A stretch of DNA of 64,000 nucleotides from Candidatus Parcubacteria bacterium (GTDB lineage Bacteria > Patescibacteriota > Saccharimonadia > UBA4664 > JBIOIQ01): contig OY970378.1 in the NCBI GenBank assembly GCA_963718875.1, positions 669,373-733,372 of the forward strand. Reading direction: 5' to 3'. The notes beneath the pieces were generated by a model. The model was given only the letters and a program-made list of their open reading frames with translations, was not told the DNA's origin and did not search any database. Positions 5,558 through 33,469 of this stretch are shown in pieces; within the stretch, counting starts at the first letter, position 1, and each line of letters begins with the position of its first letter. A program made the position numbers and the translations under genes.

Positions 5558-5564
5558 TGTTTCC

Positions 5565-15607: not shown

Positions 15608-16266
15608 TATAAGCCTTTCACCAATACTATTCCCTTGCGTGGTCCGGGAACTTGGCCGTAAACACCTAGTACTTTGTGTTCGGCGTCGACAATCATAATT
15701 TTTACACCGCGAACGGTGTTGCGTTTATTGCCCATTTGTCCGGCCATGCGCATGCCTTTAAATACATGTTCTGGATAGCCCGCCCCGATAGAGCCGGGCG
15801 CACGATAGTTGTGCGAGCCGTGAGTTTTGGGACCGGTAGCAAAATTATGTCGCTTAACGGTGCCGGCAAAACCTTTGCCCTTGCTTGTGCCGGTGATTTG
15901 AACCTTGTCGCCAACCTCAAATGTTGTTACATCTAGCTTAGAGCCAACCTTCAGGTCATCGGTGCCTTCTTCGGAGCTTGCGTCGGGCTTATTGGTGTTG
16001 TTAAGGTCTGTGCGGATTTCACGCAAGATTTTGGAGTTGGTATTGGCTGCCTTGAGGTGTCCCATCTGAGGGCGGGCTTGGTGCTTAGCCTCGCCATAGC
16101 CAATTTGCACTGCGTCATAACCGTCTTTGACTTCGGTTTTTATTTGTGTGACCACACAAGGCCCAGCTTCAATAAGGGTAATGCGAGCAACATTGCCTTC
16201 TTCATCGAAGATCTGAGTCATGCCGAGTTTTCGTCCGATCAATGCTTTCATAAGGCCCTTTAACAA
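15607..16266 (-). CDS. rplC: 50S ribosomal protein L3
   Basis: 219 aa GMTQIFDEEGNVARITLIEAGPC...; first gene of the S10-type operon here (no rpsJ upstream). Confidence 0.95.
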   Translation of the reverse strand: MLKGLMKALIGRKLGMTQIFDEEGNVARITLIEAGPCVVTQIKTEVKDGYDAVQIGYGEAKHQARPQMGHLKAANTNSKILREIRTDLNNTNKPDASSEEGTDDLKVGSKLDVTTFEVGDKVQITGTSKGKGFAGTVKRHNFATGPKTHGSHNYRAPGSIGAGYPEHVFKGMRMAGQMGNKRNTVRGVKIMIVDAEHKVLGVYGQVPGPRKGIVLVKGL

Positions 16267-16392
16267 AAAATAATCCTAGCAAGCAGCTGGTTTCCCTTAT
16301 CGGGACCTGTCTACTTCCCAGTCGTTTATCTTAGATATTTTACGTGGCTACTCAAGGAAGAGTATCAAAGATTGGCTTGAGTGTCAATCAGC

Positions 16393-17289
16393 TTGTAATA
16401 AGGTTCATTACACTAAAGCGGAACAAGCTACAATCTAACTAGGACTAACCAGTTAGAAAAGGAGACTTGTTCCAATGACCACATTAGCAGATCTACCGGT
16501 AACAGACCAAGAATGTTTTAACCAAGTGCTAGTACATCTTTATCCCGAGGGCCCTATTTGCCCTTGGATGTCCCACTCAAACATCCACATAACTACTCAG
16601 TATCTTTGGTGCGGCACCTGTCGTCGTAAATGGAGCTTAAAGAAACAAGTCGGCTTTGGGTCGTCTAAGCTCGGCTGGAGGAGGATTCTGGAACTGGTGA
16701 CTTGCTGGAGCGGTAAGCAGTCACCTGGCGACATTATCACCTCAACGGGGCTGTCCTACTGGACGATCCAACGCTGGTTAGAACGCTTGCGATCTAGACT
16801 ACCAGTCGACAAGAGCCAGTTAGTCGGGCTACTGGAGATAGACCAGAGCTATCTAGGTCGGCAGAAATATGGTAACCAACACATTGTTATGGGTATCGTG
16901 GACCGGGAAACCAACCTCGTAAGACTAGCTGAGATACTAGATTGTGAGCAGGATAGCATAGAAGGTTTTCTCGATCAGTATGCCACTCTCGGTAGCCTGA
17001 TCTTTGCTGATGCTCACGCCTCTCACCTTGGCCTAATGGAAGTTGGCTATGGTCTGGAGATCTGCAACCATTCCATTGGCCACTTTGGACCAACCAACCG
17101 CATTGAAGGGATCTGGAGCTGCCTGGATCGGTTTACCAGACGTACCCGCGACCGCTTCATGCATCAGTTCTTACCGGGATTACTCAGAGAGTTCCAGGCT
17201 AGAAAGAACCACCCAGAGTTGTTCAGTAGCCCATTTATATTACTTAAAAGTATGTCTGTTCCGTTTTAGTGGACAGAACCTTGTAATAA
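16393..17289 (+). mobile_element. IS1595-family insertion sequence (~879 bp, 16402-17280) with ~24-bp imperfect terminal IRs and flanking 9-10 bp direct repeat (C)TTGTAATAA
   Basis: IRL GGTTCATTACACTAAAGCGGAACA versus reverse complement of IRR GGTTCTGTCCACTAAAACGGAACA (19/24 match); direct repeats at 16393-16401 and 17281-17289; single transposase ORF fills the element. Confidence 0.7.
16475..17269 (+). CDS. IS1595-family (ISXO2-like) DDE transposase
   Basis: N-terminal C-x2-C...C-x2-C zinc ribbon, LLEIDQSYLGRQKYG...IVMGIVDR and TNRIEGIWSCLDRF motifs characteristic of IS1595/ISXO2 transposases. Confidence 0.75.
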   Translation: MTTLADLPVTDQECFNQVLVHLYPEGPICPWMSHSNIHITTQYLWCGTCRRKWSLKKQVGFGSSKLGWRRILELVTCWSGKQSPGDIITSTGLSYWTIQRWLERLRSRLPVDKSQLVGLLEIDQSYLGRQKYGNQHIVMGIVDRETNLVRLAEILDCEQDSIEGFLDQYATLGSLIFADAHASHLGLMEVGYGLEICNHSIGHFGPTNRIEGIWSCLDRFTRRTRDRFMHQFLPGLLREFQARKNHPELFSSPFILLKSMSVPF

Positions 17290-17673
17290 TGAATATTTGC
17301 GAATCAGGGATAAAAGGTGGTTTGCGGCTCAGCGGATCTATTAACCAATTTTCGAATGAGTTGAAGGTTGTAAGGCAATAAATGAAGAAAATGTTGTTGA
17401 CTTTGTGTCAATTATAATGTATATTAGCTAATTAATTTTAGTGAGCGAGAAATGCGCAATGTTTACCATAATTCCCATATATATTTTGCCACCTGTGTAG
17501 GGCTGTATTTAACCAACTATGCTATTTATATTTACTTACCTAGCGAGCTAACTCAACTTCGGACAATAATGTCTACAGTCATGCTCGTACTTCTACTGCT
17601 GTCGATGGTAGCTGCCCTAGGTTTTATTTTTAAGCCTGCTGGTAAACTGCAAACTACGACCGAAAAAGGTTCG

Positions 17674-18030
17674 TTAACTCGTGGCAAAGTTAAAGAAAAC
17701 ACCAAGACCCGCAAACGCTAATAGTGCTGCAATAAGCAGTATGGCGTATTCGATTTTGCGATCAATCTGAAAATGGTCATGACTGCTAAAAATTAGGCCT
17801 AAGATGAGCCCTATGGGCAAAACTACTCGGCCATTAACCTTGATCCAAATGCTACCAAGGATGAAATACATTAATATTTTTAAGAAATAAACACTGCCGG
17901 ACTCTTGAGCTTGTTTTTTGTGTGCCATGGCATAATTTAAGCATAATCGCTTTAACGGTGCAAGCTCTTTGGGAATTTGCGAATTATGAACCCGAGAATC
18001 AGGAATTGTGGGCTGCAGTCGTCTCTTCAT
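17674..18030 (-). CDS. Hypothetical small membrane protein (2-3 TM helices)
   Basis: 118-aa ORF directly downstream of the NUDIX gene on the same strand; hydrophobic segments; no recognisable motif. Confidence 0.35.
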   Translation of the reverse strand: MKRRLQPTIPDSRVHNSQIPKELAPLKRLCLNYAMAHKKQAQESGSVYFLKILMYFILGSIWIKVNGRVVLPIGLILGLIFSSHDHFQIDRKIEYAILLIAALLAFAGLGVFFNFATS

Positions 18031-18107
18031 TTATTGCCTGAGCTAGTCGAAGGCTCAAGTGCGCAATTGCCCTTTGACAGACTAAGATGATGTAACGAGG
18101 CACAGCT

Positions 18108-18575
18108 TTAGATTATGCCCGCGTTTCTTGCGGCCTCAAGGTCGCGCATGGTTTGCGAATGGAGGGGCGAGGGCAGGCTTTCAAGGGTAAACCAGCCTAT
18201 ATCCTCAATTTTATGGGGATAGCCATTTTTAACTCGGGTTGGATCAACCTTGACGGCGTAAGAAAAAGCAATCCAATGAGTAGGCTTGTTGTTTAAAGTC
18301 CTGGTTACTTCGTACCAATCCAGAAATGTCATGTCTTGGCTTTCTGCAGACAGCTCTTCCTTGACCTCTCGTCTGATAGCATCGGGTATGCTTTCGTTAA
18401 ACTCAACTACTCCACCACCATTATCCCACACTCCCTGCTCGTCCCGACAGTTTTGACTACGCTTATGAAGCACGAATTTTCCTTTGCCGTCATGGACAAC
18501 AAAACAAGCAGCAACACCAACATAATCTACGCCCGGTCTTAGATCCTGGCGCTTATACTCTTTAGAATCAGTCAT
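18108..18575 (-). CDS. NUDIX hydrolase
   Basis: Nudix box GGVVEFNESIPDAIRREVKEELS (G-x5-E-x7-REVxEE); 8-nt overlap with upstream rarA. Confidence 0.8.
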   Translation of the reverse strand: MTDSKEYKRQDLRPGVDYVGVAACFVVHDGKGKFVLHKRSQNCRDEQGVWDNGGGVVEFNESIPDAIRREVKEELSAESQDMTFLDWYEVTRTLNNKPTHWIAFSYAVKVDPTRVKNGYPHKIEDIGWFTLESLPSPLHSQTMRDLEAARNAGII

Positions 18576-19779
18576 TTTTAGCTTCCTGTGGTCGGTAAAA
18601 GATTACCCCATCTAGTCCTTCAGGCATAAAACCCTTGGGATGCTCAAATCCCGGCTTCCATTTATAATCCTGCCCGTATTGAAGCTTTTTCATCAGTGAG
18701 GTTGGCGCATTGCGCAGATGCAGCGGCGGTTCGGCTGTTGGGTTATCCGCTACAGCCTGTGTAGCATTATTTATAGCATCATAGGCGGCTCTAGACTTGG
18801 GGCTAGTGGCCATTGCAATGGTGGTGTGACTCAAATTAATGCGGCATTCAGGCATTCCAATTCGCTCCACAGCTAAAAACGTTGATACAGCAAGGTTAAG
18901 CGCATCGGAATTAGCCATACCAACATCTTCGGAAGCAAAGATTACCATTCGCCGAGCAATAAACTTGGGGTCTTCGCCGGCTTCAAGCATTCTGGCAAGG
19001 TAAAATAAGGCAGCATTTACTGCTCCACCGCGCAAAGATTTAATATATGCAGAGATGAGGTTGTAGTGAAATTCTCCTCCCTTATCGTAGCGCAAACTGG
19101 TGGACTGCATGGCCTGTTTTATAACCGGTGTTGTAATGGTTGAAGCAAGACTTGCGGCTACTTCAAGACCGCCCAAAGCCATGCGGGCATCTCCTGCCGC
19201 TAACTCAGATAACAAGGCTTTTGCATCAGTTTCAATGGTTTTTCCTGGTAGCTCAGACATTGCCCTGTCAATAATAATCTGTAGCTGGCTAGGCGAAAGT
19301 GGCTCAAGCACGACTACTCGACTACGCGATAAAAGTGGCCCTATGACCTCGAATGAAGGGTTTTCGGTGGTGGCGCCGATCAAAATAATTGTGCCGTTTT
19401 CAACATGAGGCAAGAAGGCATCTTGTTGGGCTTTGTTAAACCGGTGTATTTCGTCTATAAAAAGAACGGTTTTTTGACCCATCTTGGTTCGCTCACTAGC
19501 TTGCTGGATAAGTTTTTTTACCTCAGGAAGGCCGGCGGCAACCGCTGATATCTCTTCAAAGGCAGCCTGGCTTGAGGCGGCAACTATTCGAGCTAGAGTA
19601 GTTTTGCCTGTCCCAGGGGGGCCCCAGAGTATCAATGACGTTGGCTGCCCAGCTTCAACAAGTTTGCGTATAAATTGGTTGTCACCTAAGACATGTTCCT
19701 GGCCAACAACTTCTTTTAAGTCTCGAGGTCGTATCCTATCCGCCAAAGGCTTTTGATTATTGGATTCAAATAGGTTCAT
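18568..19779 (-). CDS. rarA: Replication-associated recombination protein A (RarA/MgsA AAA+ ATPase)
   Basis: Walker A GPPGTGKTTLARIVA, Walker B VLFIDEIHRFNKAQQD, sensor and C-terminal MgsA domains. Confidence 0.9.
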   Translation of the reverse strand: MNLFESNNQKPLADRIRPRDLKEVVGQEHVLGDNQFIRKLVEAGQPTSLILWGPPGTGKTTLARIVAASSQAAFEEISAVAAGLPEVKKLIQQASERTKMGQKTVLFIDEIHRFNKAQQDAFLPHVENGTIILIGATTENPSFEVIGPLLSRSRVVVLEPLSPSQLQIIIDRAMSELPGKTIETDAKALLSELAAGDARMALGGLEVAASLASTITTPVIKQAMQSTSLRYDKGGEFHYNLISAYIKSLRGGAVNAALFYLARMLEAGEDPKFIARRMVIFASEDVGMANSDALNLAVSTFLAVERIGMPECRINLSHTTIAMATSPKSRAAYDAINNATQAVADNPTAEPPLHLRNAPTSLMKKLQYGQDYKWKPGFEHPKGFMPEGLDGVIFYRPQEAKND

Positions 19780-19931
19780 ATTGCTTCTATAATACCGAAA
19801 TCAAACCGAAGCTACTAATTTGCCAAATTACTCAGCCCTGCTGGACGATGGATAAGCTCAATTATAGCTTCTTTTTAAGCGAGTGTGGCTTTGGTCAATG
19901 ACCTAAGATTTTAACCTTGCGCGGTTTATCG

Positions 19932-20390
19932 CTACTTGTAATAGCTTCGTATCTGGAAAAGAATAAACAAGCTTAGGAGCGCACTTATGAGAGCATTCAA
20001 GATATGTCCGCTCAAGAGTCCCACCGCTAAGGACACTACAACACCGTAGAAAGTAAGCATCCAGCCTTGTTTGGTACGAGCCAACAAGCCGGGTATGGCC
20101 GCAGCGAACAAGCCAACCTGAACTAAGGTAACGATCCACACCAAGCCTATACCAGTGGCGACTGCTGGTGAAGCAACACCAATAACTGGTAGTGCGACGG
20201 TACTTATGCCCAATGCAAGCAACAACAAAGGCAGAGCTAAGAGAAGTAGAACTAGATCTATCCAGGGACCGTATTTTACAATCCATTTTTTAGCGTTTTC
20301 TGGAAGCTGTACTGGAGACTTTGTTACCAAATAGTATTCTAGCATTCCCATTACATCTTTTGGAGGAGTGTCCGAACTTGGTCGAGCCAT
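19932..20390 (-). CDS. Hypothetical polytopic membrane protein
   Basis: 152 aa with 3-4 hydrophobic helices, no recognisable catalytic motif; lies between the rarA upstream region and the IS481 left end. Confidence 0.45.
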   Translation of the reverse strand: MARPSSDTPPKDVMGMLEYYLVTKSPVQLPENAKKWIVKYGPWIDLVLLLLALPLLLLALGISTVALPVIGVASPAVATGIGLVWIVTLVQVGLFAAAIPGLLARTKQGWMLTFYGVVVSLAVGLLSGHILNALISALLSLFILFQIRSYYK

Positions 20391-20451
20391 TTTAATAAAT
20401 CCTTCATTAATACTTCCATCATAAGCAATTTGAGCTGAAAATTCAATTTAG

Positions 20452-21519
20452 TGTGGTGGTTCATAACATGAGCGCCACTTTTTCTCGTTCTAGTTTCTCG
20501 GCATATTCCTTTGGCGTCAAGTATCCGAGAGCTTCGTGTGGCCTGTAGTCGTGGTATTTCACTAGCCAAGTGTCGATGATGTCTTGTTGGTCGGCTAGAT
20601 CAATTGCTAGGCCGCCCCACTGGATACATTCCCGCTCCAAGGTACCAATGAAACGCTCAACATGGGGCTTGTCTTTGGGAGTGTAGGGACGGGCAAAGTA
20701 CTGCGTAACGTCCATCTCCTTTAAGAGTTTGGCAAACTTTCCTAAATTCTCAGAGCCGTTGTCGTTTAAGGCAGCGGTCGGGACTAGTCCCCAGAGCTCA
20801 CAAACCTTGGTCCAGGCAACGGCAGCTTGCTGAGATGAAATACTGCTAGCCACATGGACGAAAGCTCGTTTACCCACGACATCAATGGCCACAAACCCAT
20901 AGCGTTTAACCCCCAGCATGGGCAAGTGCTTAACATCCACCTCGACTAAGTCGCCAGGCTCTGCTGCCACCAGATCTTTCGGTTTACGACGGCGGTTGAC
21001 TCTGTCAGGGTGCCCTTGGGTTTAATTGGCGGGGTGATAAACAAGTTGTAGCGCTTGATGATCCGGCCAATAGTTGAGGCGGATAAAACTACTTCATGGT
21101 CACGCTGCAGAATAGTTGCTAGTTTGTACTTAGAGTATTCTGGGTTGGCTTTGCGCAAAGAGCAAACGAGATCTATGTGAGCTAAGGGGGTTGTGGGCTT
21201 ACGGACTTGCCTGGGACGTTGAGACAAGTTCTCCAGCCCTTTTAGTCCCTGTTGGTGAAACCTTTGGTAGTAGCGGTAGAAACTGCGATGATGGATGCCA
21301 AAATGGCGACAGGTTAGACGGGCATTGCGGCCATGGGAGTGGTAATAGTCTACCCATTTAAGCCGTTGTTTAGCTTCTTTGGATAACTCTACTGGATCAC
21401 GAACTTTTCCTAACCCTGGAACAATTACGCCAATAGATGTTTGGTGGCCTGTTCGACCCTTCATAACTGCCTCCTCTAGATTATTCTAGAGTGGCGCTCA
21501 TGTATGTGAACCTGGACAT
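20452..21519 (-). mobile_element. IS481-family insertion sequence (~1.07 kb) with TGT-initiated imperfect terminal IRs and possible 5-6 bp TSD (A)TTTAG
   Basis: Left end TGTGGTGGTTCATAACATGAGCGCCACT versus reverse complement of right end TGTCCAGGTTCACATACATGAGCGCCACT; TTTAG at 20447-20451 and 21520-21524. Confidence 0.6.
20461..21464 (-). pseudogene. IS481-family transposase split into two overlapping frames (N-terminal HTH part 20946-21464; rve/DDE integrase core 20461-20970)
   Basis: The upstream ORF ends ...IWWQQSLAT and the downstream ORF continues ...EPGDLVEVDVKHLP (first catalytic D region) in another frame; rve motifs YFARPYTPKDKPHVERF present; a frameshift near 20946-20970 is needed to join them. 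Confidence 0.65.
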
Positions 21520-21587
21520 TTAGCCTTGTAAAAAGGTTTTTTTTAGAGTTTTCTTCAAGAAATATTGGCAAAAGTAAGCATAAGGAC

Positions 21588-21616
21588 TTGACAATATAGT
21601 GCTTATGGTGTAGAAT
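21588..21616 (+). promoter_or_regulatory. Near-consensus sigma70 promoter TTGACA-17-TAGAAT
   Basis: -35 at 21588-21593, -10 at 21611-21616, 17-nt spacer; lies ~70 bp outside the IS481 right end, upstream of the Rpf-like gene. Confidence 0.5.
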
Positions 21617-21637
21617 ACCTTCTTATGTTCAGATGAG

Positions 21638-21661
21638 GGCCTGATTACAGGTCTTTTTTTT
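21638..21661 (+). terminator. Intrinsic-terminator-like hairpin (GGCCTG-ATTA-CAGGTC plus T8) about 15 nt after the predicted TSS; candidate attenuator
   Basis: 6-bp stem (one GU) followed by 8 T; between the promoter and the 21765 start codon. Confidence 0.4.
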
Positions 21662-21764
21662 CTGGACATAATATCTCATTCATTCGGGGTGAGGTGGAGT
21701 TATATCACATAACGAAAGGTACACTAAGCATCGGCTGGCGCATTATCTTGCGTAACCGATACAT

Positions 21765-22380
21765 ATGCGTAACTTTACTAAGTTAGTAATGGCTTCGGCT
21801 ATGCTAGCTACTCAGGCGACACCTACTGCTCCTTATGTAGACGCCGCTTCAGTTAGGGCTTCAGTCCCTACTGTAGTTTCTTCAGAAAGTATGATTCATT
21901 TTTCAACCGCTTCAGTATATGCGGTTGAACTTGAAACTAAACCACAACCAGACTTTGATAGCGAAGTTTTAGTGCCTTTGCGGAAAGCTCAAGCTGATGC
22001 AGCTCAAAAAGCCGCTGAAGCTAAAGCTGCTCAAGCAGCAGCTCAAAAGGTTGCTCAAGCAGCCACTGCCAGCACGAACAGTTACCACTACGACCAAAAG
22101 CTTTGCGTATAATGGCCAAGTTTTAAGTGAGGCTGCTATACAATTCTTAGGTAATTGCGAGAGTGGCATGACGGCCAACCGTAATTCAGGAAACGGTTTT
22201 TACGGTGCCTTCCAGTTTACCATTAGCACTTGGAATTCAATGCAAACTGGCTATGCGCGAGCTGACTTAGCTCCCTTAGATGTCCAGATTCAAGCTGTCC
22301 ATAAGCTGCTTTCAAAATCTTCGATTTACACTCAGTTCCCCGCTTGTGCTCGAAAAATGCAAGCTGCTGGTCTGATTTAA
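21765..22380 (+). pseudogene. Secreted Rpf-like (resuscitation-promoting-factor-type) transglycosylase, frameshifted
   Basis: Signal peptide plus Ala/Gln-rich linker in frame 1 (21765-22112), and NCESGMTANRNSGNGFYGAFQFTISTWNS...FPACARKMQAAGL transglycosylase-like domain in frame 2 (21997-22380); one indel near 22060-22090 would join them. Confidence 0.6.
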
Positions 22381-22388
22381 CTAAAAGC

Positions 22389-22418
22389 AAAAACCGCTTT
22401 TAAAAGGGCGGTTTTTGC
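22389..22418. terminator. Bidirectional intrinsic terminator (AAACCGC...GCGGTTT with flanking A/T runs)
   Basis: Hairpin directly after the Rpf-like stop. Confidence 0.45.
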
Positions 22419-22473
22419 GTGTAAAAAGTAACCTTTAGTTGTCGAGTCTCGATGGTTTTTCTCGAATGTCTAT

Positions 22474-23010
22474 TTATAAGGTCGTGTCGGCGATATTGGT
22501 ACCACCATGTACGCCATCTCCCCGAAGATCTAGATCCGTTGGATTACTTGCAGGGGTTGTTGGGTCGACCATCGGCGGCATTTCTGGATTTGTCTCGATA
22601 GGGTCGGTAGCAGGGTTATGAGATGGAATTTCTATTTCCTTAATGCTTAACTGCGAAGCCAAAGTTATTTGAGAGTCCTGTAGTGCTCGAGCTGTAGCAA
22701 GGGTAGATAATGCGGGGTTTACGGGCTTATAAACAATGCGGGGTTTAATAGTAGTACTGCGATATTGGGGAGCTTGCGTGCTTAGCTGAGAGGGATTTGT
22801 TGGCTGAGAAAGTGAGCTTTGAGGGGTGATGATTTGAGTTTTAGGCTTTGGAGCAACTCGAGGTTTATTAGCTACTGGTTTCTGCCCAGGAAGTCTGAAA
22901 AAGGCTAAGCTAATAGTAGCCCCTAGTAATAAAACAATTGTAAGCGCAGCAAAAGTTTTTACTCCGTTTTGAACAGATTGTTTTTGACTTAATTGCTTCA
23001 TAAACTCCAT
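22474..23010 (-). CDS. Hypothetical N-terminally membrane-anchored Pro/Thr/Ser-rich protein
   Basis: 178 aa, one TM helix near the N-terminus, then a low-complexity P/T/Q-rich region. Confidence 0.5.
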   Translation of the reverse strand: MEFMKQLSQKQSVQNGVKTFAALTIVLLLGATISLAFFRLPGQKPVANKPRVAPKPKTQIITPQSSLSQPTNPSQLSTQAPQYRSTTIKPRIVYKPVNPALSTLATARALQDSQITLASQLSIKEIEIPSHNPATDPIETNPEMPPMVDPTTPASNPTDLDLRGDGVHGGTNIADTTL

Positions 23011-23091
23011 GTTGTGGTTGGCTCACTGACTTTAAGTAGGAGCCTATTTTAGTTTGTTTTGGTCAAAATTACAATATTTTTGATGGATTAT

Positions 23092-24594
23092 TTAAGGCTT
23101 GTGATTACTCACTAGATCTTGGTTCGACGATATACTTTGCAAGAATTGATAAATTTTTACCATAGCTAGAGTGTCTTGTCCGCAGTAGGTTATGAGGTCT
23201 GAGTAGACCTTTTGGTTTTCTTCGGTCGTTAAATGCCCTTTGGCGCTATTTGTCCACCGAATTTGAGCAGTTGCTCCTTCGTGAATCTCTAAGTCGGCGT
23301 AGCTCATTTCTGGCACAAGAATTGGTAAGACGTTCTTTATGGATACGCTACCGCCAAAATTGGGGTCTACATACCAAAAGTTACTAAATACTTCCATTAA
23401 ATCCACAACTCGGTCGTTAACTGAAGCTAAAAAACTTGCATATTCAGGTTGTAGCCTTGACATGGTGTTGTTGCAGCTCATTTCAAACAGTTTAAACCAA
23501 ACCAATACGCTTCCGCTTAGTCCAAGATCTCTCTCTAGCCGCAAGAGAAGTTGCGGTATAGGATTGTCGCTTCCGCGGCTCAAGAATTCCTTGTGGCGCA
23601 CTTCCCCACCCGGCATATCAATAATATGGAGAGAATATTGGAATGGAAGCTGTTGGTATGGTCTTTGCTTATCCCATAGTGGAATGGCAAGATTATAGGT
23701 TTCGTAATCAAGAAAATATAGTGGATATTGAAGCTGGCTTAACCACTCAGCAATTTTTACTCGATGCGTTGCTGGTCGGTCTAACCGTAGAGCTTCAATG
23801 TATGCGCGTTGTTCTCGTGATAGTTTGGACGACAGAGAAATTTGACTTGATTTTGTAATCCCCGACTGGCTCCATGAGCGCAGCTGATCGGGCTTAAGCC
23901 GCTTCAGCCTGAAAATGCTATCTGGTTCCAGGCTGGGGTGAAGATGCCGATATGTCGGTAACCAAGCACCTAAGTTGGTTGCCTTAATGGGGTGCAAATC
24001 TGGACATTGGCTAAGGTTGAGCACACCAATAGCCTCAATAATTTTGCTTTTAGTAGAGTCAAGGATGGAGTCGACCCGGTCGGTAACGTTAACTGTTTTG
24101 AAAAGGTGACGTGGATTTATAGCACCGTCTTTCGTGAATCGGGTATTTATGTGTACAACAAAGGTCTGGCCTATTTTGTAACCATAGTCTGTAAAGGCGA
24201 CTTTTTGAAAACTTAGGTCGTTTAGGTGGTCAAACCGGACTTTGGTTGCGGCTTTAATTTCGTAAATGTCCCAATGCAAGCCGTTTTTTACCAAAACGTC
24301 AGCCCGCGCATATAAATTGCGACTAGTTAAGACGGACGCCTGGAAGAGGGTGGTCGAACCGTTGCTTATAATCCAGTTAGTGTCAGTAACGGCCTCTTTA
24401 AGAACCGTTTCTATCATTATCCCATCAGGAAAAAGACTGCGGGCAAGTGCCTCCACCTCGTTCCCTTGGTTTACGTGGTAGTGTCCTGATTCATCGAACG
24501 GCGGCAGTTTGTCTTTGTCGTATTTTGAAAGCCAAAGGTAGGCCGGATGAATTAGGAACTTTAGGTAGTCAGACTTGGTTAGCCATTTAGCCAT
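23092..24594 (-). CDS. Two-nuclease-domain protein: N-terminal PD-(D/E)xK nuclease, C-terminal DEDDy-like 3'-5' exonuclease domain (DUF2779-like)
   Basis: ARADVLVKNGLHWDIYEIKAATKV (D...EIK motif) in the N-terminal half; YFLDYETYN (Exo I-like DxE) and YCGQD (Exo III-like YxxxD) in the C-terminal half. Confidence 0.55.
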   Translation of the reverse strand: MAKWLTKSDYLKFLIHPAYLWLSKYDKDKLPPFDESGHYHVNQGNEVEALARSLFPDGIMIETVLKEAVTDTNWIISNGSTTLFQASVLTSRNLYARADVLVKNGLHWDIYEIKAATKVRFDHLNDLSFQKVAFTDYGYKIGQTFVVHINTRFTKDGAINPRHLFKTVNVTDRVDSILDSTKSKIIEAIGVLNLSQCPDLHPIKATNLGAWLPTYRHLHPSLEPDSIFRLKRLKPDQLRSWSQSGITKSSQISLSSKLSREQRAYIEALRLDRPATHRVKIAEWLSQLQYPLYFLDYETYNLAIPLWDKQRPYQQLPFQYSLHIIDMPGGEVRHKEFLSRGSDNPIPQLLLRLERDLGLSGSVLVWFKLFEMSCNNTMSRLQPEYASFLASVNDRVVDLMEVFSNFWYVDPNFGGSVSIKNVLPILVPEMSYADLEIHEGATAQIRWTNSAKGHLTTEENQKVYSDLITYCGQDTLAMVKIYQFLQSISSNQDLVSNHKP

Positions 24595-24624
24595 ACTTAA
24601 TATTGTAACAAAAGCTGTTACTTG

Positions 24625-25395
24625 CTATTTGAATCGTGACGCTGACTCAATTAAGGCTTGGCGGGATTTGCGATAGCTTTTTAGGCCTAAAAACATGGCC
24701 GGAATGGCAACACTTGCTATCAGAGGTGCCTCTGAGCCAGTTTTAGGGGTTGTGGCGGGTTTTGGAATAGGTGTTGTCGCAGGAGTAGGCGGTGGAACAG
24801 AGATAGGCGCCGGCGCGGGGGTGGCTTTTGTCATCGGGGCTGGCGTAGGTTTTGGTACCGGAGTGGGAGCAGGTACTGGAGTCGGCGTCGGACTTGTCAT
24901 TGCAGTAGTGGCTACCACGGGACGTGCCGTTACAGGATTACCGCAAGATTTGATAACGGCCCACATGAACTGGTTGTTCTGCATGTATACGTAAGCGGGG
25001 AGACTGTCGCTGACAAAGGATACGGACGTAGGGCGAATCCAAACGTTAGCCATTGCAGTTGATCCTTCCATGAACTGACGCCCGACAGATTGGGCATTTG
25101 TTGCAACAACACGGTTATTTAGCAGTAGCACATTCCCGGCTTTTGTTACAGTTCCTTCAACTGTTGAGCTAATAAGATTAGGGTCAATTCCGCTAGCAGC
25201 GTAAATACTTGAAATGTCAGCTGAGCTATTGTGTCCATCTCCTTGGGTCGCAGCTTTGACTACATCTGACGGATACGTTGCTCCACACCAAATAACGGCA
25301 TTATCATCGCAATCTTGGGCAGCTTGAGTTGACAATGGATTCGCAATAGCTATGGCTACGAGCACAATGATTGGTAGTAACTTTTGCTTATTCAT
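24625..25395 (-). CDS. Secreted surface protein with Pro/Thr linker and C-terminal sortase-type sorting signal (TPKTG plus TM helix plus basic tail)
   Basis: N-terminal signal peptide; PTPTPVPAPTPVPKPTPAP linker; C-terminus TTPKTGSEAPLIASVAIPAMFLGLKSYRKSRQ. Confidence 0.55.
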   Translation of the reverse strand: MNKQKLLPIIVLVAIAIANPLSTQAAQDCDDNAVIWCGATYPSDVVKAATQGDGHNSSADISSIYAASGIDPNLISSTVEGTVTKAGNVLLLNNRVVATNAQSVGRQFMEGSTAMANVWIRPTSVSFVSDSLPAYVYMQNNQFMWAVIKSCGNPVTARPVVATTAMTSPTPTPVPAPTPVPKPTPAPMTKATPAPAPISVPPPTPATTPIPKPATTPKTGSEAPLIASVAIPAMFLGLKSYRKSRQALIESASRFK

Positions 25396-25602
25396 AGATT
25401 AGATCCTTTTATGAGTAACAACATCGAATTCTATCATGGCAGAGAAGCCAACAGATTGACTTGTTGAAAGTCACACAAAACAAGCCTAGTTATTAAAACT
25501 TCATTGGAATAACAACCATCATCTTAATACTCGTTTGATTTTTAGCTGGACTTTACTTTTGGCTACTTTAAGGTCAGAATGTAAGCATAATAAGGATTTA
25601 CA

Positions 25603-26373
25603 ATGTCTGAAAATTCTGTGCTGGGCCAGCCCCAAAAAGACCGTCTCAGTATATCATTTGGCTACAAGTTCATATCCCTGACATTGCTCGCAGTGATCGC
25701 TATTATGCTTCTGGTTTGGAAGCCCTGGGTTTCAACCGCCAATGCAGACGATCGTACTATTTCGGTTACAGGCAAAGCCGATATCAAAGCCGAGCCGGAC
25801 GAATATGTCTTTAATCCTAGTTATCAGTTTAAGAACATTGATAAGGCAGCTGCTCTTAAGAACCTCACCGCTAAAAGCAGCGAACTGATAGCAAAATTAA
25901 AGGGTATGGGCGTTGAAGACCGGAATATAAAAACAGATTCTAACGGATATGACTATCAACGCTACTACTATAATAACGACACAAAAGAATCGACTTACAC
26001 CTTAGTTTTGACTGTGACGCTTGCAAACCGCGATAAAGCTCAGAAAGTCCAAGACTATCTTGTAACAACTGACCCTACGGGGAGCATATCGCCCAATGTA
26101 ACTTTTAGCGATAGTAAACGTAAGGCGCTTGAAAGCCAGGCTCGAGACCTCGCTACAAAAGAAGCACGCTCAAAAGCTGAGCAGTCGGCTAAAAATCTTG
26201 GATTTAAGGTTGGGGCAGTTAAGGCGGTCCAGGACGGCTCTGGTTTCGGCAATATATATCCAATGCAGGGCAGGGCCAGCTTAGAGACATCGTCAGAGGA
26301 TGCAAAGTTAGATGTGCAACCCGGTCAAAATGACCTCAGCTATACCGTAAACGTTGTTTATTTTGTTAAATAA
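25603..26373 (+). CDS. SIMPL (DUF541) domain protein, YggE/BP26-like periplasmic/extracytoplasmic protein
   Basis: N-terminal TM/signal anchor, then RTISVTGKADIKAEPDEYVF and downstream SIMPL-like pattern; AAGGA Shine-Dalgarno 7 nt before the ATG. Confidence 0.65.
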   Translation: MSENSVLGQPQKDRLSISFGYKFISLTLLAVIAIMLLVWKPWVSTANADDRTISVTGKADIKAEPDEYVFNPSYQFKNIDKAAALKNLTAKSSELIAKLKGMGVEDRNIKTDSNGYDYQRYYYNNDTKESTYTLVLTVTLANRDKAQKVQDYLVTTDPTGSISPNVTFSDSKRKALESQARDLATKEARSKAEQSAKNLGFKVGAVKAVQDGSGFGNIYPMQGRASLETSSEDAKLDVQPGQNDLSYTVNVVYFVK

Positions 26374-26663
26374 TATTTTAAGCATAACTAGGTTGACTCA
26401 AACTAGTGTATTGTGATTAACTTGACTTACCAACTTAAGTTTTGTGGAGTTGGATGTTTATAACGGCCGCTAAGGTTCGTTATGGTACCTATCTAGAGAG
26501 GACTGCTCATAAACTGTTTAAACAATAGACGCGAAACGTCTAGAGTGATTTCAGTAAGAGTGATACGAGCGCCTAGGCTAATCCATCCTGAAGTGTGATT
26601 GTGGAAAATTACGCTAAAATCATGATACTAGCTATTTGGATGTGTCTTCAAAAGAGCAACTGC

Positions 26664-26694
26664 ACCTCTGACTTCCAATCGGAGGTGTTTTTGT
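26664..26694 (+). terminator. Intrinsic terminator (CACCTC-13 nt-GAGGTG plus TTTTTGTG) in non-coding DNA
   Basis: 6-bp GC-containing stem followed by a T-run; no convincing CDS upstream on the plus strand. Confidence 0.4.
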
Positions 26695-27017
26695 GTTAAT
26701 TTGCTTTAACCAACAACTTAATTCATAATTTTGGTGTCCGGTTCTCCAGCAGAAAGGTGCTTTAAGGTGTCACTGCAGTTGTTCCTGATCCTGACAGCGT
26801 TGCTAGGATGGTTTCTTCCGGCAATGTTACTCAATCTGCTCCTACGCCAGGTTAGAAGGCTATATCCAAGAAGCCGAGTCGCGATCATTTCTCGTGACTG
26901 GCTGTACAGTTGGAAATGGTTCCTGTGCTGGTGGATCACCGTATTGTGCATCATTTTCCGAGTCGAAGATAAGCCAGCCTTCGCTTCGTCGACTACGTCG
27001 CCAACGGCGGAATCGTA

Positions 27018-27084
27018 ACACCCCTAAGTAGTAATTTATCGCCAACGGGCGATATCCGCTTTTCTCAGGGGTGTCGTCTTTTTA
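27018..27084 (+). terminator. Two-level hairpin (ACACCCCTAAG...CTCAGGGGTGT with an inner ATCGCC/GGCGAT hairpin) followed by a T-run
   Basis: 10/11-bp outer stem, 6-bp inner stem, then CGTCTTTTTA; abuts the 3' end of the minus-strand CYTH gene. Confidence 0.4.
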
Positions 27085-27089
27085 TAAAG

Positions 27090-27662
27090 CTACCGTTTTT
27101 CCTGCTGATCAAATTTAAGTATTTTGTAATCAAGCATATTAATCCCTGAGGCTTCATAGATCTGAAAGGCTGAGCAAATCTTCTTGTCCGCTTGACTTAG
27201 GCTGAGTTTTTCGATCATTTTGTCAATATCTGCCCAGCTGGTAGCTTCAATCTCAAGATAGGGTGGGATCAAAGGCATCTCATCAATGTCGAGCTCTACC
27301 CCATCTAGTTCATAACGCGTGCGCTTTTTTTCTTCCAGGAACTTTTCGACCAGTCCAATACGGCGTAGGATCTCGGAGGTGGCTTCAAAGTCGCTAACTT
27401 TTACTTCATGTTCAAGCATTGAGCTATCATTTGCGCCGGCTTTAACTCCTTGGCGCTGTTTGTATGCCAGCTTGGTCTCGTTACCATCGCTACGTAAGCG
27501 CACCCAGGCAGCTTGCTCATTAAGGCGTAAGTCGGGGAAATCAAAGGTGGTGATGCGATACTTTGTTTCGAATAGCTTTTTCCCACCCAGTTCGATAATT
27601 TGATTCTTAAGGTGGTCCCGATTGATATTGAGGAATTTAACTTCTATTTCTTCCATGCACAT
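27090..27662 (-). CDS. CYTH-domain protein (triphosphate tunnel metalloenzyme / class IV adenylate cyclase-ThTPase family)
   Basis: N-terminal EIEVKFL signature and overall ~190-aa CYTH pattern of alternating acidic/basic beta strands. Confidence 0.7.
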   Translation of the reverse strand: MCMEEIEVKFLNINRDHLKNQIIELGGKKLFETKYRITTFDFPDLRLNEQAAWVRLRSDGNETKLAYKQRQGVKAGANDSSMLEHEVKVSDFEATSEILRRIGLVEKFLEEKKRTRYELDGVELDIDEMPLIPPYLEIEATSWADIDKMIEKLSLSQADKKICSAFQIYEASGINMLDYKILKFDQQEKR

Positions 27663-27757
27663 TCTATCCAGTTAGGTCCCTTGACTCGTATAACTCGCTC
27701 GGGATGACAGATAAGTGAAGTTCTGCGGGATACGTTGTGCAGAATTTTACTTCTTTG

Positions 27758-27793
27758 TCACATCTTAATTTCGATGTCGACGCCAGCTCGGGG
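27758..27793 (-). other. Diverged partial copy of the rpsJ 3' end (encodes [11 protein letters not shown] plus stop), located immediately 3' of the real rpsJ stop
   Basis: 26/34 nt identical to the authentic rpsJ terminus at 27808-27841; differences are mostly synonymous third-position changes. Confidence 0.55.
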
Positions 27794-27805
27794 TTTTCGC
27801 GTAGC

Positions 27806-28136
27806 TACATCTTGATTTCAATGTCAACACCGGCAGGGAGATTGAGGTTCATGAGTGCATCGATCGTCTTGGGAGTTGGTTCGGTAATATCGATGAGACG
27901 TTTATGGGTGCGCATTTCAAATTGTTCTCGGCTGTCTTTATGAACGAATGTGCCTCGGATAACAGTAAAGCCTTTTTTTCGGTTGGAAGTGGAATTGGAC
28001 CAGCTACTAGTGCGCCTGTTCGTATGGCAGTATCAAGAATCTGCTTGGCAGACTGATCGATAACCTTAGAATCATAGGCTTTAAGGCGAATGCGGATTCG
28101 TTGTTTAACGGCTTCTTTTTCGGGTTTTTCTGGCAT
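27806..28136 (-). CDS. rpsJ: 30S ribosomal protein S10, reading frame interrupted at an A7 homopolymer (plus-strand T-run 27973-27979)
   Basis: Frame 1 gives [55 protein letters not shown]; with one extra A the downstream frame reads [56 protein letters not shown], a canonical S10 C-terminus. Confidence 0.85.
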
Positions 28137-28176
28137 TTGTACTAAGGTTCCTATTCCTTCTTTAGGGTATGCAAAG

Positions 28177-28195
28177 GCCCCGCAGGGTGCGGGGC
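28177..28195 (-). other. GC-rich perfect hairpin (GCCCCGC-5 nt-GCGGGGC) in the tuf-rpsJ intergenic spacer
   Basis: 7-bp G/C stem with no following U-tract; likely an RNA processing or stability element rather than a terminator. Confidence 0.3.
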
Positions 28196-28206
28196 TAGCA
28201 TGTATG

Positions 28207-29397
28207 TTACTTAATAATCTTGGTTACAACTCCGGCACCAACAGTACGGCCACCTTCACGAATGGCGAAACGTAGGCCTTCTTCCATGGCAATCGGTGCA
28301 ATCAGAGTGATTTTCATTTGTACATTATCACCAGGCATTACCATCTCCATACCCTCTGGAAGCTGAACTTCACCAGTTACGTCAGTGGTGCGGATGTAGA
28401 ACTGGGGCTTGTAACCTTTGAAAAATGGAGTGTGACGTCCACCCTCTTCTTTTTTTAGTACGTATACTTCGGAATCAAATTCAGTGTGAGGAGTGATGGA
28501 GCCTGGCTTAGCTAATACTTGTCCACGCTCAATGTCGGTACGCTCGATACCACGTAACAGCGCGCCTACGTTGTCACCTGCTTGGGCATCCGGTAGGAGC
28601 TTTTTAAACATCTCAACACCGGTAATGACGGTCTTTTTGGTGGGGTGAATGCCGATAATTTCGACTTCGTCATTTACCTTGACTATACCTTGCTCAATAC
28701 GGCCGGTCGCAACAGTACCACGGCCTTTGATCGAGAAAACATCTTCAATAGGCATAAGGAACGGCTTGTCAAGTTCGCGCTTGGGCTCTGGAAGGTAGTC
28801 ATCCATAGCCTTAACAAGCTCTAAAATAGCTTTTTCAGCGTCAGCATCGCCTTCCATCGCTTTAAGAGCTGATCCCTTAATGATAGGCGCATTGTCGCCG
28901 TCATACTCGTTTTTGTTGAGTAATTCGCGAATTTCGACTTCTACTAGTTCTGCTAACTCTGGGTCAGCCATGTCCATTTTATTCATGAATACGAGAATGC
29001 TAGGAACGCCTACTTGTCGAGCCAACAGAACGTGCTCGCGAGTTTGAGGCATGGGGCCGTCAGCGGCGCTTACTACTAAGATGGCGCCGTCAATCTGGGC
29101 GGCACCGGTAATCATGTTTTTGACATAGTCAGCATGACCCGGCATATCGACATGAGCGTAGTGACGCTTTTCGCTTTCATACTCTTCGTGAGATGTTGCA
29201 ATCGTAATACCACGTTGTTTTTCTTCTGGCGCGTTGTCAATTTGCGCGTACGATACGGGCTTATTAATGCTTGATGGTAGGTGTTTTGCAAGTACTGTTG
29301 TAATAGCAGCTGTTAGCGTGGTTTTACCGTGGTCGACGTGACCCATGGTACCAACATTAAGATGCGGCTTGGTGCGTGAATATGTTTCTGTAGCCAT
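28207..29397 (-). CDS. tuf: Elongation factor Tu
   Basis: 396 aa, [27 protein letters not shown] motifs; AAGGAG Shine-Dalgarno upstream. Confidence 0.97.
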
Positions 29398-29676
29398 GAA
29401 CTCTCCTTAACTTATGAGTTGTGTAGTTATGCCATTTGCGGACTTGATGCAGTTCCCCTTTGATAAAGTGATTCTGAACCAAGCGCACAATGACGATCAT
29501 TATACTAAAATGGGCAATAAAAATAACTGCCCATTAGGACCTAGCCATTATACGGATAAACAGACTTGTTTGTAAAGGCTTTTAAGCTCGCACTCTACGT
29601 TTGTAGTTATGGCTTAGCGCGCTTGACGACCCGAGAGATGTTGATGATCCCCCGGGCCGTTAAACTTTGAGACGCA

Positions 29677-33301: not shown

Positions 33302-33313
33302 AATTAATCCTAT

Positions 33314-33456: not shown

Positions 33457-33469
33457 TTTGGTTATAGGC

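Follow-up and report, generated by a model that had tools for sequence, protein, structure and literature searches.

In the bacterium studied here, the ribosomal protein genes rpsJ and rplC are separated by 11.5 kb; this split is very probably ancestral and vertically inherited, with rplC under its own conserved predicted promoter and hairpin leader, and with two insertion sequences (IS) as recent additions. The source genome belongs to the Saccharimonadia (TM7, Patescibacteria/CPR), and the closest homologues of its L3, RarA and CYTH proteins all come from Saccharimonadia/Saccharimonadales MAGs. In the 64,000-nucleotide stretch analysed (the window), the minus strand reads tuf, rpsJ, the gap and then rplC. 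The tuf gene (EF-Tu; 28207–29397, minus) lies directly 5′ of rpsJ (S10; 27805–28136, minus; 332 nt, frameshifted), which starts 70 nt downstream, beyond a hairpin with a weak U-tract. rplC (L3; 15607–16251, minus) heads about 29 co-directional ribosomal-protein, secY, infA and rpoA genes; translation probably begins from the ATG at 16251, the ORF caller running on to a TTG at 16266. An earlier note on this DNA had listed the 11.5-kb gap, its gene content and 28 genes downstream of rplC, and gene order and Pfam matches bear this out, with about 28 co-directional genes counted there. We propose that the rpsJ–rplC junction was broken long ago in Saccharimonadia and that the broken state was then passed down vertically. 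rpsJ would have stayed with tuf, in most relatives ending at a strong intrinsic terminator, and rplC would head a transcription unit of its own, with a sigma-70-type promoter and a 5′ UTR of ~100 nt containing a covarying hairpin.

The split extends throughout the sampled clade. Among the other Saccharimonadia, both rpsJ and rplC are visible in nine loci, and all nine have them apart, at distances of 3.0–6.9 kb (3054–6867 bp in L003, L004, L007, L010, L012, L015, L016 and L018; 4.2 kb in L164), and no rpsJ was found within 10 kb of rplC in L013 and L162. The gap thereby ranges from 3 kb to >10 kb across a sample of ~20 Saccharimonadia genomes, mostly MAG contigs, and deep-branching members may keep the two genes together. 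In 47 non-cyanobacterial loci of other lineages, the Patescibacteria L033, L047, L074 and L075 among them, the distance is 0–420 bp. Twelve other Saccharimonadia genomes also encode rarA 5′ of rplC and on its strand; none of 80 RarA loci of other lineages has it linked to rplC. The nearest long-contig genomes compared share at most 83% RarA and 90% L3 identity with the window.

The gap also has a shared gene order at both of its sides, rpsJ–CYTH–SIMPL–surface protein–DUF2779 on the rpsJ side and Rpf–h152...rarA–h84–h89–rplC on the other. Locus L163 follows the gene order of the window from tuf through DUF2779, and L162 does so from DUF2779 through Rpf and h152, and then for rarA, h84, h89 and rplC. 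Beginning at rpsJ, a CYTH / class IV adenylate cyclase-like gene (Pfam; 27090–27656, minus), directly 3′ of rpsJ also in L163, L164 and L165, is followed by a 716-bp stretch without a domain-bearing ORF (26374–27089). This stretch carries terminator-like hairpins on both strands, has the same length in a short-read assembly, and has neither an Rfam match nor a homologue among the fetched loci. Next come a SIMPL (DUF541) gene (Pfam; 25603–26373, plus), in the same position and orientation in L163, and a surface-protein gene (24625–25395, minus) with homologues in L162 and L163. Its product has a signal peptide, a linker rich in Pro and Thr and, at the C terminus, PKTGS followed by a TM segment and a basic tail. 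The DUF2779 gene (Pfam; 23092–24594, minus) is syntenic in the same two loci. A 178-aa ORF (22474–23010, minus), Pro-rich in one region and with a single predicted membrane segment, matched no Pfam family, and the Rpf-like transglycosylase gene beyond it (21765–22380, plus) is split over two frames in an Ala/Gln-rich linker; L162 has an intact 195-aa orthologue in the same place and orientation.

On the rplC side, h152 encodes a 152-aa membrane protein (19932–20390, minus); L012 and L014 have it immediately 5′ of rarA, and in L162 it lies on the same side at a greater distance, beside Rpf. rarA (mgsA; Pfam; 18568–19779, minus) is overlapped at its stop by 8 nt of a NUDIX hydrolase gene (18108–18575, minus), of which the fetched relatives have no detectable homologue between rarA and h84. 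The small conserved membrane protein h84 (17674–17928, minus), with two predicted membrane helices, is extended to 18030 by the ORF caller, and its homologues start near Met35. It sits between rarA and rplC in all Saccharimonadia loci with enough flank except L015, and still precedes rplC in L164, which is without rarA; the rarA and h84 pair is found 5′ of rplC in at least 10 GTDB loci, plus L161 and L162. A small ORF, h89 (17452–17721, plus), has homologues in L001, L161 and L162, and is bracketed together with h84 by a perfect 16-nt inverted repeat (17373–17388, 18024–18039). Few ORF clusters in the gap middle are common to different genomes, the contents being unrelated small genes (DinB/MDMPI, DJ-1, YbjQ, GyrI-like, RNase H, NUDIX, PQ-loop, NYN and others). 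The edges of the gap (rpsJ–CYTH; rarA–h84(–h89) by rplC) are conserved, with a middle that would gain and lose small genes in each lineage. Most of the 11.5 kb (CYTH, SIMPL, surface protein, DUF2779, Rpf, h152, rarA, h84 and h89) is common to relatives that are 73–83% identical in CYTH or RarA protein. The earlier description of the region as a mosaic of core and acquired DNA fits these patterns, since rarA, h84 and CYTH are conserved and the gap middle varies between genomes. The choice it had offered, between an island inserted at the junction and an IS-mediated split, is contradicted by the clade-wide split and the synteny on both gap sides; the comparison with related genomes that it had proposed returned mostly the same gene order, without IS, the pattern that it had associated with an ancestral arrangement.

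The start of rplC is marked by further conserved features. A predicted promoter (16359–16387, minus) consists of a –35 TTGACA (16387–16382), a 17-nt spacer ending TGA and a –10 TACTCT (16364–16359), and the same architecture occurs upstream of rplC in 20/20 relatives examined. By these sequence criteria, rplC has its own conserved sigma-70-type promoter. The earlier note had placed an IS end 7 bp from this promoter and regarded the promoter as one on which rplC must now depend; the adjacency stands, at a measured 12 bp from the –35 hexamer, but the promoter is ancient and conserved across relatives rather than makeshift. Downstream, the 5′ UTR contains a structured leader of ~68 nt (16257–16323, minus) that folds as an imperfect long hairpin with stems P1 CUGG/CUAG, P2 AAGUAG/CUGCUU, GG/CC and UCCC/GGGA, and a conserved unpaired AGG...RAWACC. 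On its 3′ side are a U-rich run, a Shine-Dalgarno sequence and the ATG; the U-rich run begins 3–5 nt past the stem, which is atypical of a classical intrinsic terminator. A covariance model finds the leader in 21 genomes and in each case immediately 5′ of rplC; these are the 17 used for training and L008, L161 (E 1.5e-11), L162 (5e-14) and L164 (2e-5). Nothing else fell below E 0.1 in a search of about 2 Mb. Pairing is retained in 86% of cells versus 33–49% in slid controls, and 10/15 pairs show compensatory changes, values reached by 0/500 shuffles, although the alignment behind these counts was in part fitted to the model. With a plain MAFFT alignment, RNAalifold gave 10/14 covarying pairs, and the minimum-free-energy fold of the window leader is the same hairpin. 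There was no sequence or structure match to any family in Rfam 15. By analogy, we infer that the leader is a putative ribosomal-protein autoregulatory element, in which a protein encoded by the operon, once bound to the hairpin, might lower transcriptional read-through or rplC translation, as L4 does at the E. coli S10 leader.

Both IS elements reported earlier, together with their target-site duplications, were recovered with refined boundaries. An IS1595-family element of 883 bp (16400–17282, plus) has 26-nt terminal inverted repeats (23/26 match) and a DDE_Tnp_IS1595 transposase (Pfam; 16475–17269, plus) that points away from rplC; its end lies at the rplC promoter. It is flanked by GTAAT (16395–16399, 17283–17287), or CTTGTAAT counting the terminal CTT, so that the duplication is 5 bp unambiguously and 8 bp with CTT, where an 8-bp target duplication is typical of the family. 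An IS481-family element of 1067 bp (20452–21518, minus) has terminal inverted repeats of the TGTGG.../...CCACA type and a TTTAG duplication (20447–20451, 21519–21523). Its rve/HTH transposase (20461–21464, minus) is divided, unlike in its family, between two ORFs in a –1 frame relation, lacks a slippery site at the frame break, and may be inactive or mis-sequenced. In other respects, both elements resemble their families in domains (DDE_Tnp_IS1595, or HTH plus rve/rve_3), in size (0.88 and 1.07 kb), and in their inverted repeats, short duplications and multiple genomic copies, including further IS1595-family copies elsewhere in the same genome. The gap of no relative compared contains an IS: the IS1595-family element is absent from L001, L161, L162 and L164, and in L162 Rpf and h152 are adjacent without an IS between them. 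Because they are of different families and each has its own target-site duplication, both are simple insertions, not recombination joints; they are late additions and not the cause of the rpsJ–rplC split. The IS481-family element entered recently between Rpf and h152, and the IS1595-family element at a point 12 bp 5′ of the –35 box of rplC; each made its own duplication, and promoter and leader were left intact.

The 3′ end of rpsJ raises the possibility of exchange within the gap. Strong intrinsic terminators lie 3′ of rpsJ in 9 relatives. In the window, a second copy of the rpsJ 3′ end, 31 nt in length (GCTGGCGTCGACATCGAAATTAAGATGTGAC; 27757–27787, minus), starts 17 nt past the real stop and directly follows half of a terminator-like sequence (GAAAACCCCG), with CCCCG microhomology at the joint. 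This remnant corresponds to the last 10 codons of rpsJ, diverged at silent sites, and matches the functional rpsJ end of L164/L165 at 31/31 positions, the remaining DNA being 65–73% identical. A recombination scar has here replaced the usual terminator. A broader reading, compatible with our preferred one and not exclusive of it, accepts the ancestral split and adds that much of the gap content was exchanged by recombination (homologous or illegitimate, via natural transformation) with other Saccharimonadia, the gap acting as a hotspot. In addition to the remnant, it draws on the highly variable gap content, the inversion of the h84/h89 module in L161, and the position immediately 5′ of the –35 box of rplC, which is occupied by a different insert in each of three genomes (in the window, the IS1595-family element; in L001, 720 bp of 56% GC that include a 148-aa ORF; in L161, two ORFs). 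Saccharibacteria are naturally competent (PMC10633639), which likewise favors exchange. However, exchange between close relatives would leave no trace in composition, and the gap proteins are 55–86% identical to those of L162/L163, comparable with rarA (79%) and rplC (77%), as vertical descent predicts. Extensive exchange is thus a tentative addition that we hold to be possible but rather doubtful.

Assembly error, whether as a misjoin at IS copies or as long-read homopolymer errors, is an unlikely source of the pattern as a whole, albeit one with a clear foothold in rpsJ. In this essential gene the reading frame is broken within an A7 run (T7 at 27973–27979, plus strand), and one added A, or a –1 slip on A_AAA_AAG, gives back the full 110-aa S10. 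The frameshift did not appear in the earlier reader's list. It is probably a homopolymer-length error of the assembly, because the independent short-read assembly of run ERR12037361 has an intact 110-aa rpsJ (333 nt), with neighbouring genes identical, although the shift may instead be real and compensated by –1 slippage on A_AAA_AAG. All three frameshifts noticed (rpsJ, the IS481-family transposase and Rpf) fall in 20.4–28.1 kb, the window as a whole having had no systematic screen; those of the transposase and Rpf are outside long homopolymers. Against an artefactual arrangement, two ERR12037361 contigs show the gap halves independently and as in the window (DUF2779–surface protein–SIMPL–CYTH–rpsJ–tuf; h152–rarA–NUDIX–h84–h89). 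Both contigs stop at or close to the two IS elements, and these junctions are bridged by the target-site duplications and by L162 synteny. Likely only the frameshifts, that of rpsJ above all, are artefacts.

A recent composite island or integrative element at the rpsJ/rplC junction of the window genome would account for the 11.5-kb length, the two IS and several accessory-looking genes. Duplications such as the rpsJ remnant can mark integration at the 3′ end of a gene, and this one matches at every position the end of rpsJ in L164, which belongs to another lineage. The likeness to islands at the 3′ ends of housekeeping genes, with their att duplications, does not extend further: the two rpsJ ends are adjacent, 17 nt apart, rather than at opposite ends of the region, no direct repeats flank it, and Pfam detects no integrase or recombinase in the gap beyond the two IS transposases. 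Nor is there a shift in composition or codon usage between the gap and flanking genes, for which the earlier note had proposed a check. Scored for GC, GC3 and synonymous-codon likelihood against all window genes at a cut-off of 2 SD, every gap gene except the two transposases is within 2 SD, save h152 (z –2.2); GC3 is 0.424 ± 0.048 for all window genes and 0.51–0.56 for the transposases, and GC is 0.439 for the gap without IS versus 0.454 for the rest of the window. Given also the gene order common to relatives on both sides and the split in every Saccharimonadia locus examined, a recent island is highly improbable. Less credible still is an inversion or translocation between IS copies that split the operon in the window lineage, for although two IS lie in the gap, one beside the rplC promoter, and IS1595-family transposase copies exist elsewhere in the genome, the two belong to different families, each keeps an intact direct repeat that recombination between copies would destroy, IS-free relatives have the same Rpf–h152 and h89–promoter–rplC order, and the split is older than the insertions.

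The ancestral split, as we prefer to read it, has parallels in known systems. The rplC leader resembles that of the E. coli S10 operon (L4 attenuation plus translational repression) in being a structured 5′ UTR before the first gene of an L3-L4-L23-L2... operon, and, as in ribosomal-protein leaders, a hairpin and a U-rich run come before the ribosome-binding site. It differs in preceding rplC and not rpsJ, and in occurring, among the loci searched, only in Saccharimonadia; the mechanism is drawn by analogy. The gene arrangement itself recalls the cyanobacterial/plastid (and archaeal) layout, in which rpsJ is with tuf, and rplC, apart from both, opens a separate unit. The str cluster of cyanobacteria and plastids has rps10 after tufA, and no S10 gene was found upstream of rplC in 6 cyanobacterial loci with at least 5.5 kb of upstream flank, or in 2 further loci with a flank of only 0.5 kb. 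The Saccharimonadia split is nevertheless an independent event in an unrelated phylum; other Patescibacteria keep rpsJ and rplC together. Moreover, the Saccharimonadia units stay neighbours at 3 to >10 kb, rather than dispersed round the chromosome, and the gap between them holds the conserved rarA–h84 pair and a variable gene set.

Gene calling placed every ribosomal gene in this part of the window on the minus strand, with fusA (31220-33301, -), two small membrane ORFs, tuf (28207-29397, -) and rpsJ (27805-28136, -) on one side of an interval of 11.5 kb, and rplC (15607-16251, -), followed by ~28 co-directional ribosomal-protein, secY, infA and rpoA genes, on the other. The window thus departs from the canonical bacterial S10 operon, in which rpsJ comes first and directly precedes rplC. 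Two contigs of an independent short-read assembly (run ERR12037361), encoding proteins identical to those of the window, reproduce the blocks DUF2779-surface protein-SIMPL-CYTH-rpsJ-tuf and h152-rarA-NUDIX-h84-h89, and end at or near the positions of the insertion sequences (IS). Since both blocks recur there, the arrangement is no misassembly, and the ~11.5-kb separation and ~28 downstream genes described in the earlier note hold. So does its gene list for the gap, according to a Pfam scan of all ORFs of at least 85 aa in 16267-27805 plus one ORF of 78 aa. Specifically, the order from the rpsJ side is CYTH, a stretch of 716 bp, SIMPL (opposite strand), a surface protein (signal peptide, Pro/Thr-rich, C-terminal PKTGS followed by a hydrophobic segment and a basic tail), DUF2779, a 178-aa ORF (h178), an Rpf-like transglycosylase (opposite strand, in two frames), an rve/HTH transposase (in two frames), the membrane ORF h152, rarA, NUDIX (overlapping rarA by 8 nt), h84 (a small membrane ORF once its start is corrected), h89 (opposite strand) and a DDE_Tnp_IS1595 transposase. 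No NCBIfam or Pfam family was found for h84, h89, h152 or h178. The 716-bp stretch (26374-27089), of the same length in the short-read assembly, contains no recognisable gene or Rfam family and has no homologue in a six-frame tblastn against all fetched loci; it is missing from one relative (L163), in which SIMPL abuts CYTH. The str cluster is also broken up, with an ABC-F (EttA/ribosomal-protection-like) gene (33470-35122) between rpsG and fusA (33302-35204), and a YGGT-like ORF and a 182-aa membrane ORF in the fusA-tuf interval (29398-31219). In relatives, fusA-tuf spacing is 0.9-2.9 kb and tuf-rpsJ spacing reaches 2.3 kb.

The distribution of the split was evaluated in 80 loci that were fetched through L3 homologues from a set with one genome for each GTDB species and annotated with the proteins of the window. 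For L3, RarA and CYTH alike, the best homologues of the window are from Candidatus Saccharimonadia/Saccharimonadales MAGs. All eight surveyed Saccharimonadia loci containing both genes separate rpsJ from rplC, by 3054-6867 bp, and a further locus of the class (L164; 4.2 kb) brings the number of other split loci to nine (3.0-6.9 kb). Two more Saccharimonadia loci, L013 and L162 (the latter fetched through its RarA homologue rather than the L3 survey), have no rpsJ within 10 kb of rplC. The distance is 0-420 bp in 47 non-cyanobacterial loci of other lineages, including the Patescibacteria L033, L047, L074 and L075. Among cyanobacterial loci, none of eight has rpsJ upstream of rplC, the upstream flank being at least 5.5 kb in six of them. 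The split thus characterises the class Saccharimonadia, has precedent elsewhere and is not an event of this genome; the locus has the architecture normal for the class, to which two IS have recently been added. What appeared to be an island in an S10 operon is thus the usual architecture of a whole class, which broke an otherwise near-universal rpsJ-rplC link independently. We found nothing specific described in the literature on an rpsJ/rplC split or a ribosomal leader in Saccharibacteria. Two side observations arose from the survey. First, the four named Patescibacteria and L057, a MAG labelled as an uncultured gammaproteobacterium, have adjacent rpsJ and rplC with an unusually long spacer of 300-420 bp, versus 0-100 bp in most other bacteria. 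Second, MAG SRP200132_co1_243 yields two rplC loci, L001 (CAZSRA010000035.1) and L007 (CAZSRA010000018.1), with L3 identities to the window of 90% and 64%, and this bin probably mixes two Saccharimonadales genomes.

Clustering of the gap ORFs of 13 relatives revealed few families in common: rarA occurs in nine of these gaps, h84 in ten and h152 in two. The h84 product (17674-17928, -; ~85 aa) is predicted to form two membrane helices and contains a highly conserved core, DSVYFLKIL...DHFxIDRKIEYA; almost every Saccharimonadia locus examined has the gene upstream of rplC. Other gap ORFs vary by genome (among them DinB/MDMPI, DJ-1/PfpI, YbjQ, GyrI-like, RNase H, NUDIX, PQ-loop, guanylate-kinase-like, FMN-dependent dehydrogenase-family (PF01070), DsbA-like and NYN), and no recombinase or transposase was found among the scanned gap ORFs of relatives. 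Closer relatives, reached via RarA and CYTH homologues, retain longer stretches of the order in the window. L163 (CYTH 73%) reads tuf-rpsJ-CYTH-SIMPL(opposite)-surface proteins-DUF2779-188-aa ORF; L164 (CYTH 67%) reads rpsL-rpsG-fusA-x-tuf-rpsJ-CYTH-...-h84-h89(opposite)-rplC and has no rarA; and L162 (RarA 79%) reads DUF2779-surface protein-...-Rpf(opposite)-h152-...-rarA-h84-h89(opposite)-rplC. Judged by these three gene orders, most of the gap in the window is inherited. The rarA-rplC linkage is absent from 80 RarA loci of other lineages. The metagenome scan with RarA behind this negative control yielded no close relatives, only distant RarA genes (46-60% identity) of other lineages, and none of them lay next to rplC or shared its direction. 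The h89/h84 module is bracketed in the window by a perfect 16-nt inverted repeat (17373-17388 and 18024-18039), one arm overlapping the long h84 ORF at its start, and is turned around in L161 (3500-4030), where it likewise sits between rarA and rplC. The module may be an invertible segment or may reflect a one-off inversion; no comparable inverted repeat surrounds h84/h89 in L161 or L162.

The earlier note had proposed that either IS-driven rearrangement or insertion of a composite island at the rpsJ/rplC junction had split the operon. Two IS elements are indeed present. The first (16400-17282) has 26-nt inverted repeats matched at 23 of 26 positions and is flanked by GTAAT; its transposase (PF12762, 32.8 bits against a cut-off of 27) carries CxxC motifs near the N-terminus, and this DDE_Tnp_IS1595 transposase with an N-terminal zinc-ribbon, the terminal inverted repeats and the target-site duplication identify it as a member of the IS1595 family. 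The second (20452-21518; 1067 bp) is a probable IS481-family element: its size, its TGT...ACA-type inverted repeats, the flanking TTTAG and its HTH_28/HTH_32, rve and rve_3 domains fit, against an ORF split by a frameshift and an LZ_Tnp_IS481 match below cut-off. Rearrangement by these elements is contradicted by their different families, by the intact target duplication that each retains, and by the adjacency of IS-free relatives that is restored when both are removed, namely Rpf-h152 as in L162 and h89-promoter-rplC as in L001, L161, L162 and L164. From these comparisons, both IS are late, simple insertions, not the cause of the split.

Insertion of a genomic island or integrative element is not supported either. 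Far from lacking the interval at the same site, the relatives L162, L163 and L164 share gene order on both sides of the gap, and no Saccharimonadia locus examined has rpsJ next to rplC. The Pfam scan finds no integrase or site-specific recombinase in the gap, only the two IS transposases; a repeat search revealed no att-like direct repeats linking the gap ends, and self-BLAST of the gap against the whole window detected no further IS copies or repeats. Nor is there a compositional shift. GC is 0.439 in the gap without IS versus 0.454 in the rest of the window; GC3 of the non-IS gap genes is 0.33-0.48, compared to 0.424 ± 0.048 for all 59 window genes (0.51-0.56 for the two transposases), and their codon-likelihood z ranges from -2.2 to +1.65. 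Except for h152 (z -2.2, the only non-IS gene beyond 2 SD) and the transposases, gap genes fall within 2 SD of the 59 window genes in GC, GC3 and synonymous-codon likelihood. The description of the gap as a mosaic of core and variable DNA holds, though not in the sense that the note gave it; recent horizontal acquisition is not supported. A composite transposon, in which two copies of one IS bracket the cargo and share a single target duplication, can be dismissed, as the IS belong to different families (IS1595-like and IS481-like), have separate duplications and are both internal to the gap.

One scar is visible at the 3′ end of rpsJ. The stop codon is followed by CTACGCGAAAACCCCG, which resembles the 5′ half of the terminators of relatives, and then, 17 nt beyond the true stop codon, by a repeat of the final ten rpsJ codons (27757-27787, -; 31 nt) that differs from the real end by six synonymous and zero non-synonymous changes. 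This remnant is identical at 31 of 31 positions to the functional rpsJ end of L164/L165, including an unusual ATT codon and the TGA stop, and the DNA around it is only 65-73% identical to these loci. The missing 3′ terminator half (CGGGGTTTT) was sought at the far end of the gap, with matches at chance level. The simplest reading of these sequences is a past recombination joint at CCCCG microhomology, which would have replaced the rpsJ end and destroyed the terminator, as is plausible in naturally competent bacteria. The copies of the rpsJ end (27808-27831 and 27761-27784) are mutually adjacent and the sole such copies; the scar does not bracket the gap and is therefore no att site of an island.

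Three frameshifts were noticed in the window. The rpsJ gene goes out of frame after codon 55, within GAAAAAAAGG (A7; T7 on the plus strand, 27973-27979), and either one extra A or a -1 slip on A_AAA_AAG gives a normal protein. The short-read assembly, of the same strain and with identical neighbouring genes, encodes a 110-aa S10 from a 333-nt rpsJ, so the frameshift is most likely a homopolymer-length assembly error; programmed frameshifting is unlikely for the same reason, despite the presence of A_AAA_AAG. A frameshift in this essential gene flags probable homopolymer errors in the assembly of the window. The frameshifts in the IS481 transposase and Rpf lie outside long homopolymers. Programmed -1 frameshifting in the transposase is ruled out by an ORF overlap without a slippery heptamer, and both genes may be real pseudogenes or assembly errors; the Rpf orthologue of L162 is intact (195 aa).

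The most interesting by-product of the analysis is a conserved rplC leader that is absent from Rfam. In every Saccharimonadia genome examined, rplC is preceded by a promoter, TTGAC(A)-N17/18-TAnnnT (-35 box at 16387-16382, - and -10 box at 16364-16359, - in the window), a start region (GGTAnnn or GAGTAGCC), a variable hairpin and a conserved leader core, CTRGG-AAGTrn-AGGTC-stem/loop-GAWACC-nnACTT-CCYAG (16257-16323, -), followed by a U-rich run (TTATTTWTG), a Shine-Dalgarno sequence and the start codon. Run on a plain MAFFT alignment, RNAalifold predicted the hairpin, 10 of its 14 pairs showing compensatory changes, and the minimum-free-energy fold of the window alone gives the same structure. 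In a model-fitted alignment, 86% of cells pair, versus 33-49% with partners slid by 1-3 columns, and double changes occur in 10 of 15 pairs; the observed values were reached by none of 500 shuffles. A covariance model built from the leader finds it solely directly upstream of rplC, in 21 genomes including the window (L001-L016, L018, L161, L162, L164). Of these matches, 17 are to training loci, one is to L008, which is truncated, and three come from outside the training set, namely L161 (E = 1.5e-11), L162 (5e-14) and L164 (2e-5). No other sequence scored below E 0.1 in ~2 Mb that included non-Saccharimonadia Patescibacteria, and there was no match in the rpsJ-rplC spacers of L033, L047, L057, L074 and L075. 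Rfam 15 gave no match at E ≤ 1 in 15500-31500 and only chance-level matches (E about 1-8) in focused scans of the leader from the window and L007; the window contains no 23S rRNA. With a conserved, covarying 5′ UTR structure, the leader is a candidate ribosomal-protein leader, limited to Saccharimonadia among the loci searched and not listed in Rfam 15.

The earlier note was correct that the rplC promoter adjoins an IS end, in another sense than intended: the promoter is long-established and conserved, and the IS is late. The IS1595 element has its outer end (16400) 12 bp upstream of the -35 box and 4 bp beyond its own target duplication, with the transposase directed away from rplC, a position indicating that insertion removed whatever was upstream of the promoter but spared both promoter and leader. 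L001, the nearest relative of the window (L3 90%), loses homology to it at exactly this point, where L001 carries a different insert of 720 bp (142-862; 56% GC, 148-aa ORF) and L161 carries two ORFs of 249 and 235 aa (4040-5640). Three unrelated inserts in the window, L001 and L161 mark this spot (window 16389-16400) as a recurrent insertion site, and, with an IS only 12 bp from its -35 box, the main ribosomal-protein operon presents a natural perturbation.

A strong intrinsic terminator directly follows rpsJ in nine relatives, and the TM7x tuf and rpsJ promoters have been used as separate strong promoters (Wang et al., PMC10633639). Together with the rplC promoter and leader, these features make tuf/rpsJ and the rplC operon separate, long-established transcription units. 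Tentatively, and with somewhat less than even confidence, we suggest that the leader is an undescribed Saccharimonadia-specific ribosomal-protein sensor that arose or was retained when rplC and rpsJ were uncoupled, and that the interval has since been a tolerated "cargo bay". In this view L4, L3 or another operon-encoded protein would bind the leader, which would serve as an attenuator or translational operator, and the interval between two highly expressed units would have been repeatedly hit by insertions, inversions and transformation-mediated exchange, with one recurrent insertion point right at the -35 box. Since cultivated Saccharibacteria are genetically manipulable (PMC10633639), the leader is directly testable.

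For CPR genomes, the split is relevant to checks of marker-gene synteny, to the curation of MAGs and to annotation based on operons. Known systems offer two points of comparison. In cyanobacteria and plastids, rps10 follows tufA, which agrees with the absence of rpsJ upstream of rplC in the fetched cyanobacterial loci. In E. coli, the S10 leader is controlled by L4; by analogy, we infer that the Saccharimonadia rplC hairpin would be a site of autoregulation by one of the proteins that the operon encodes.
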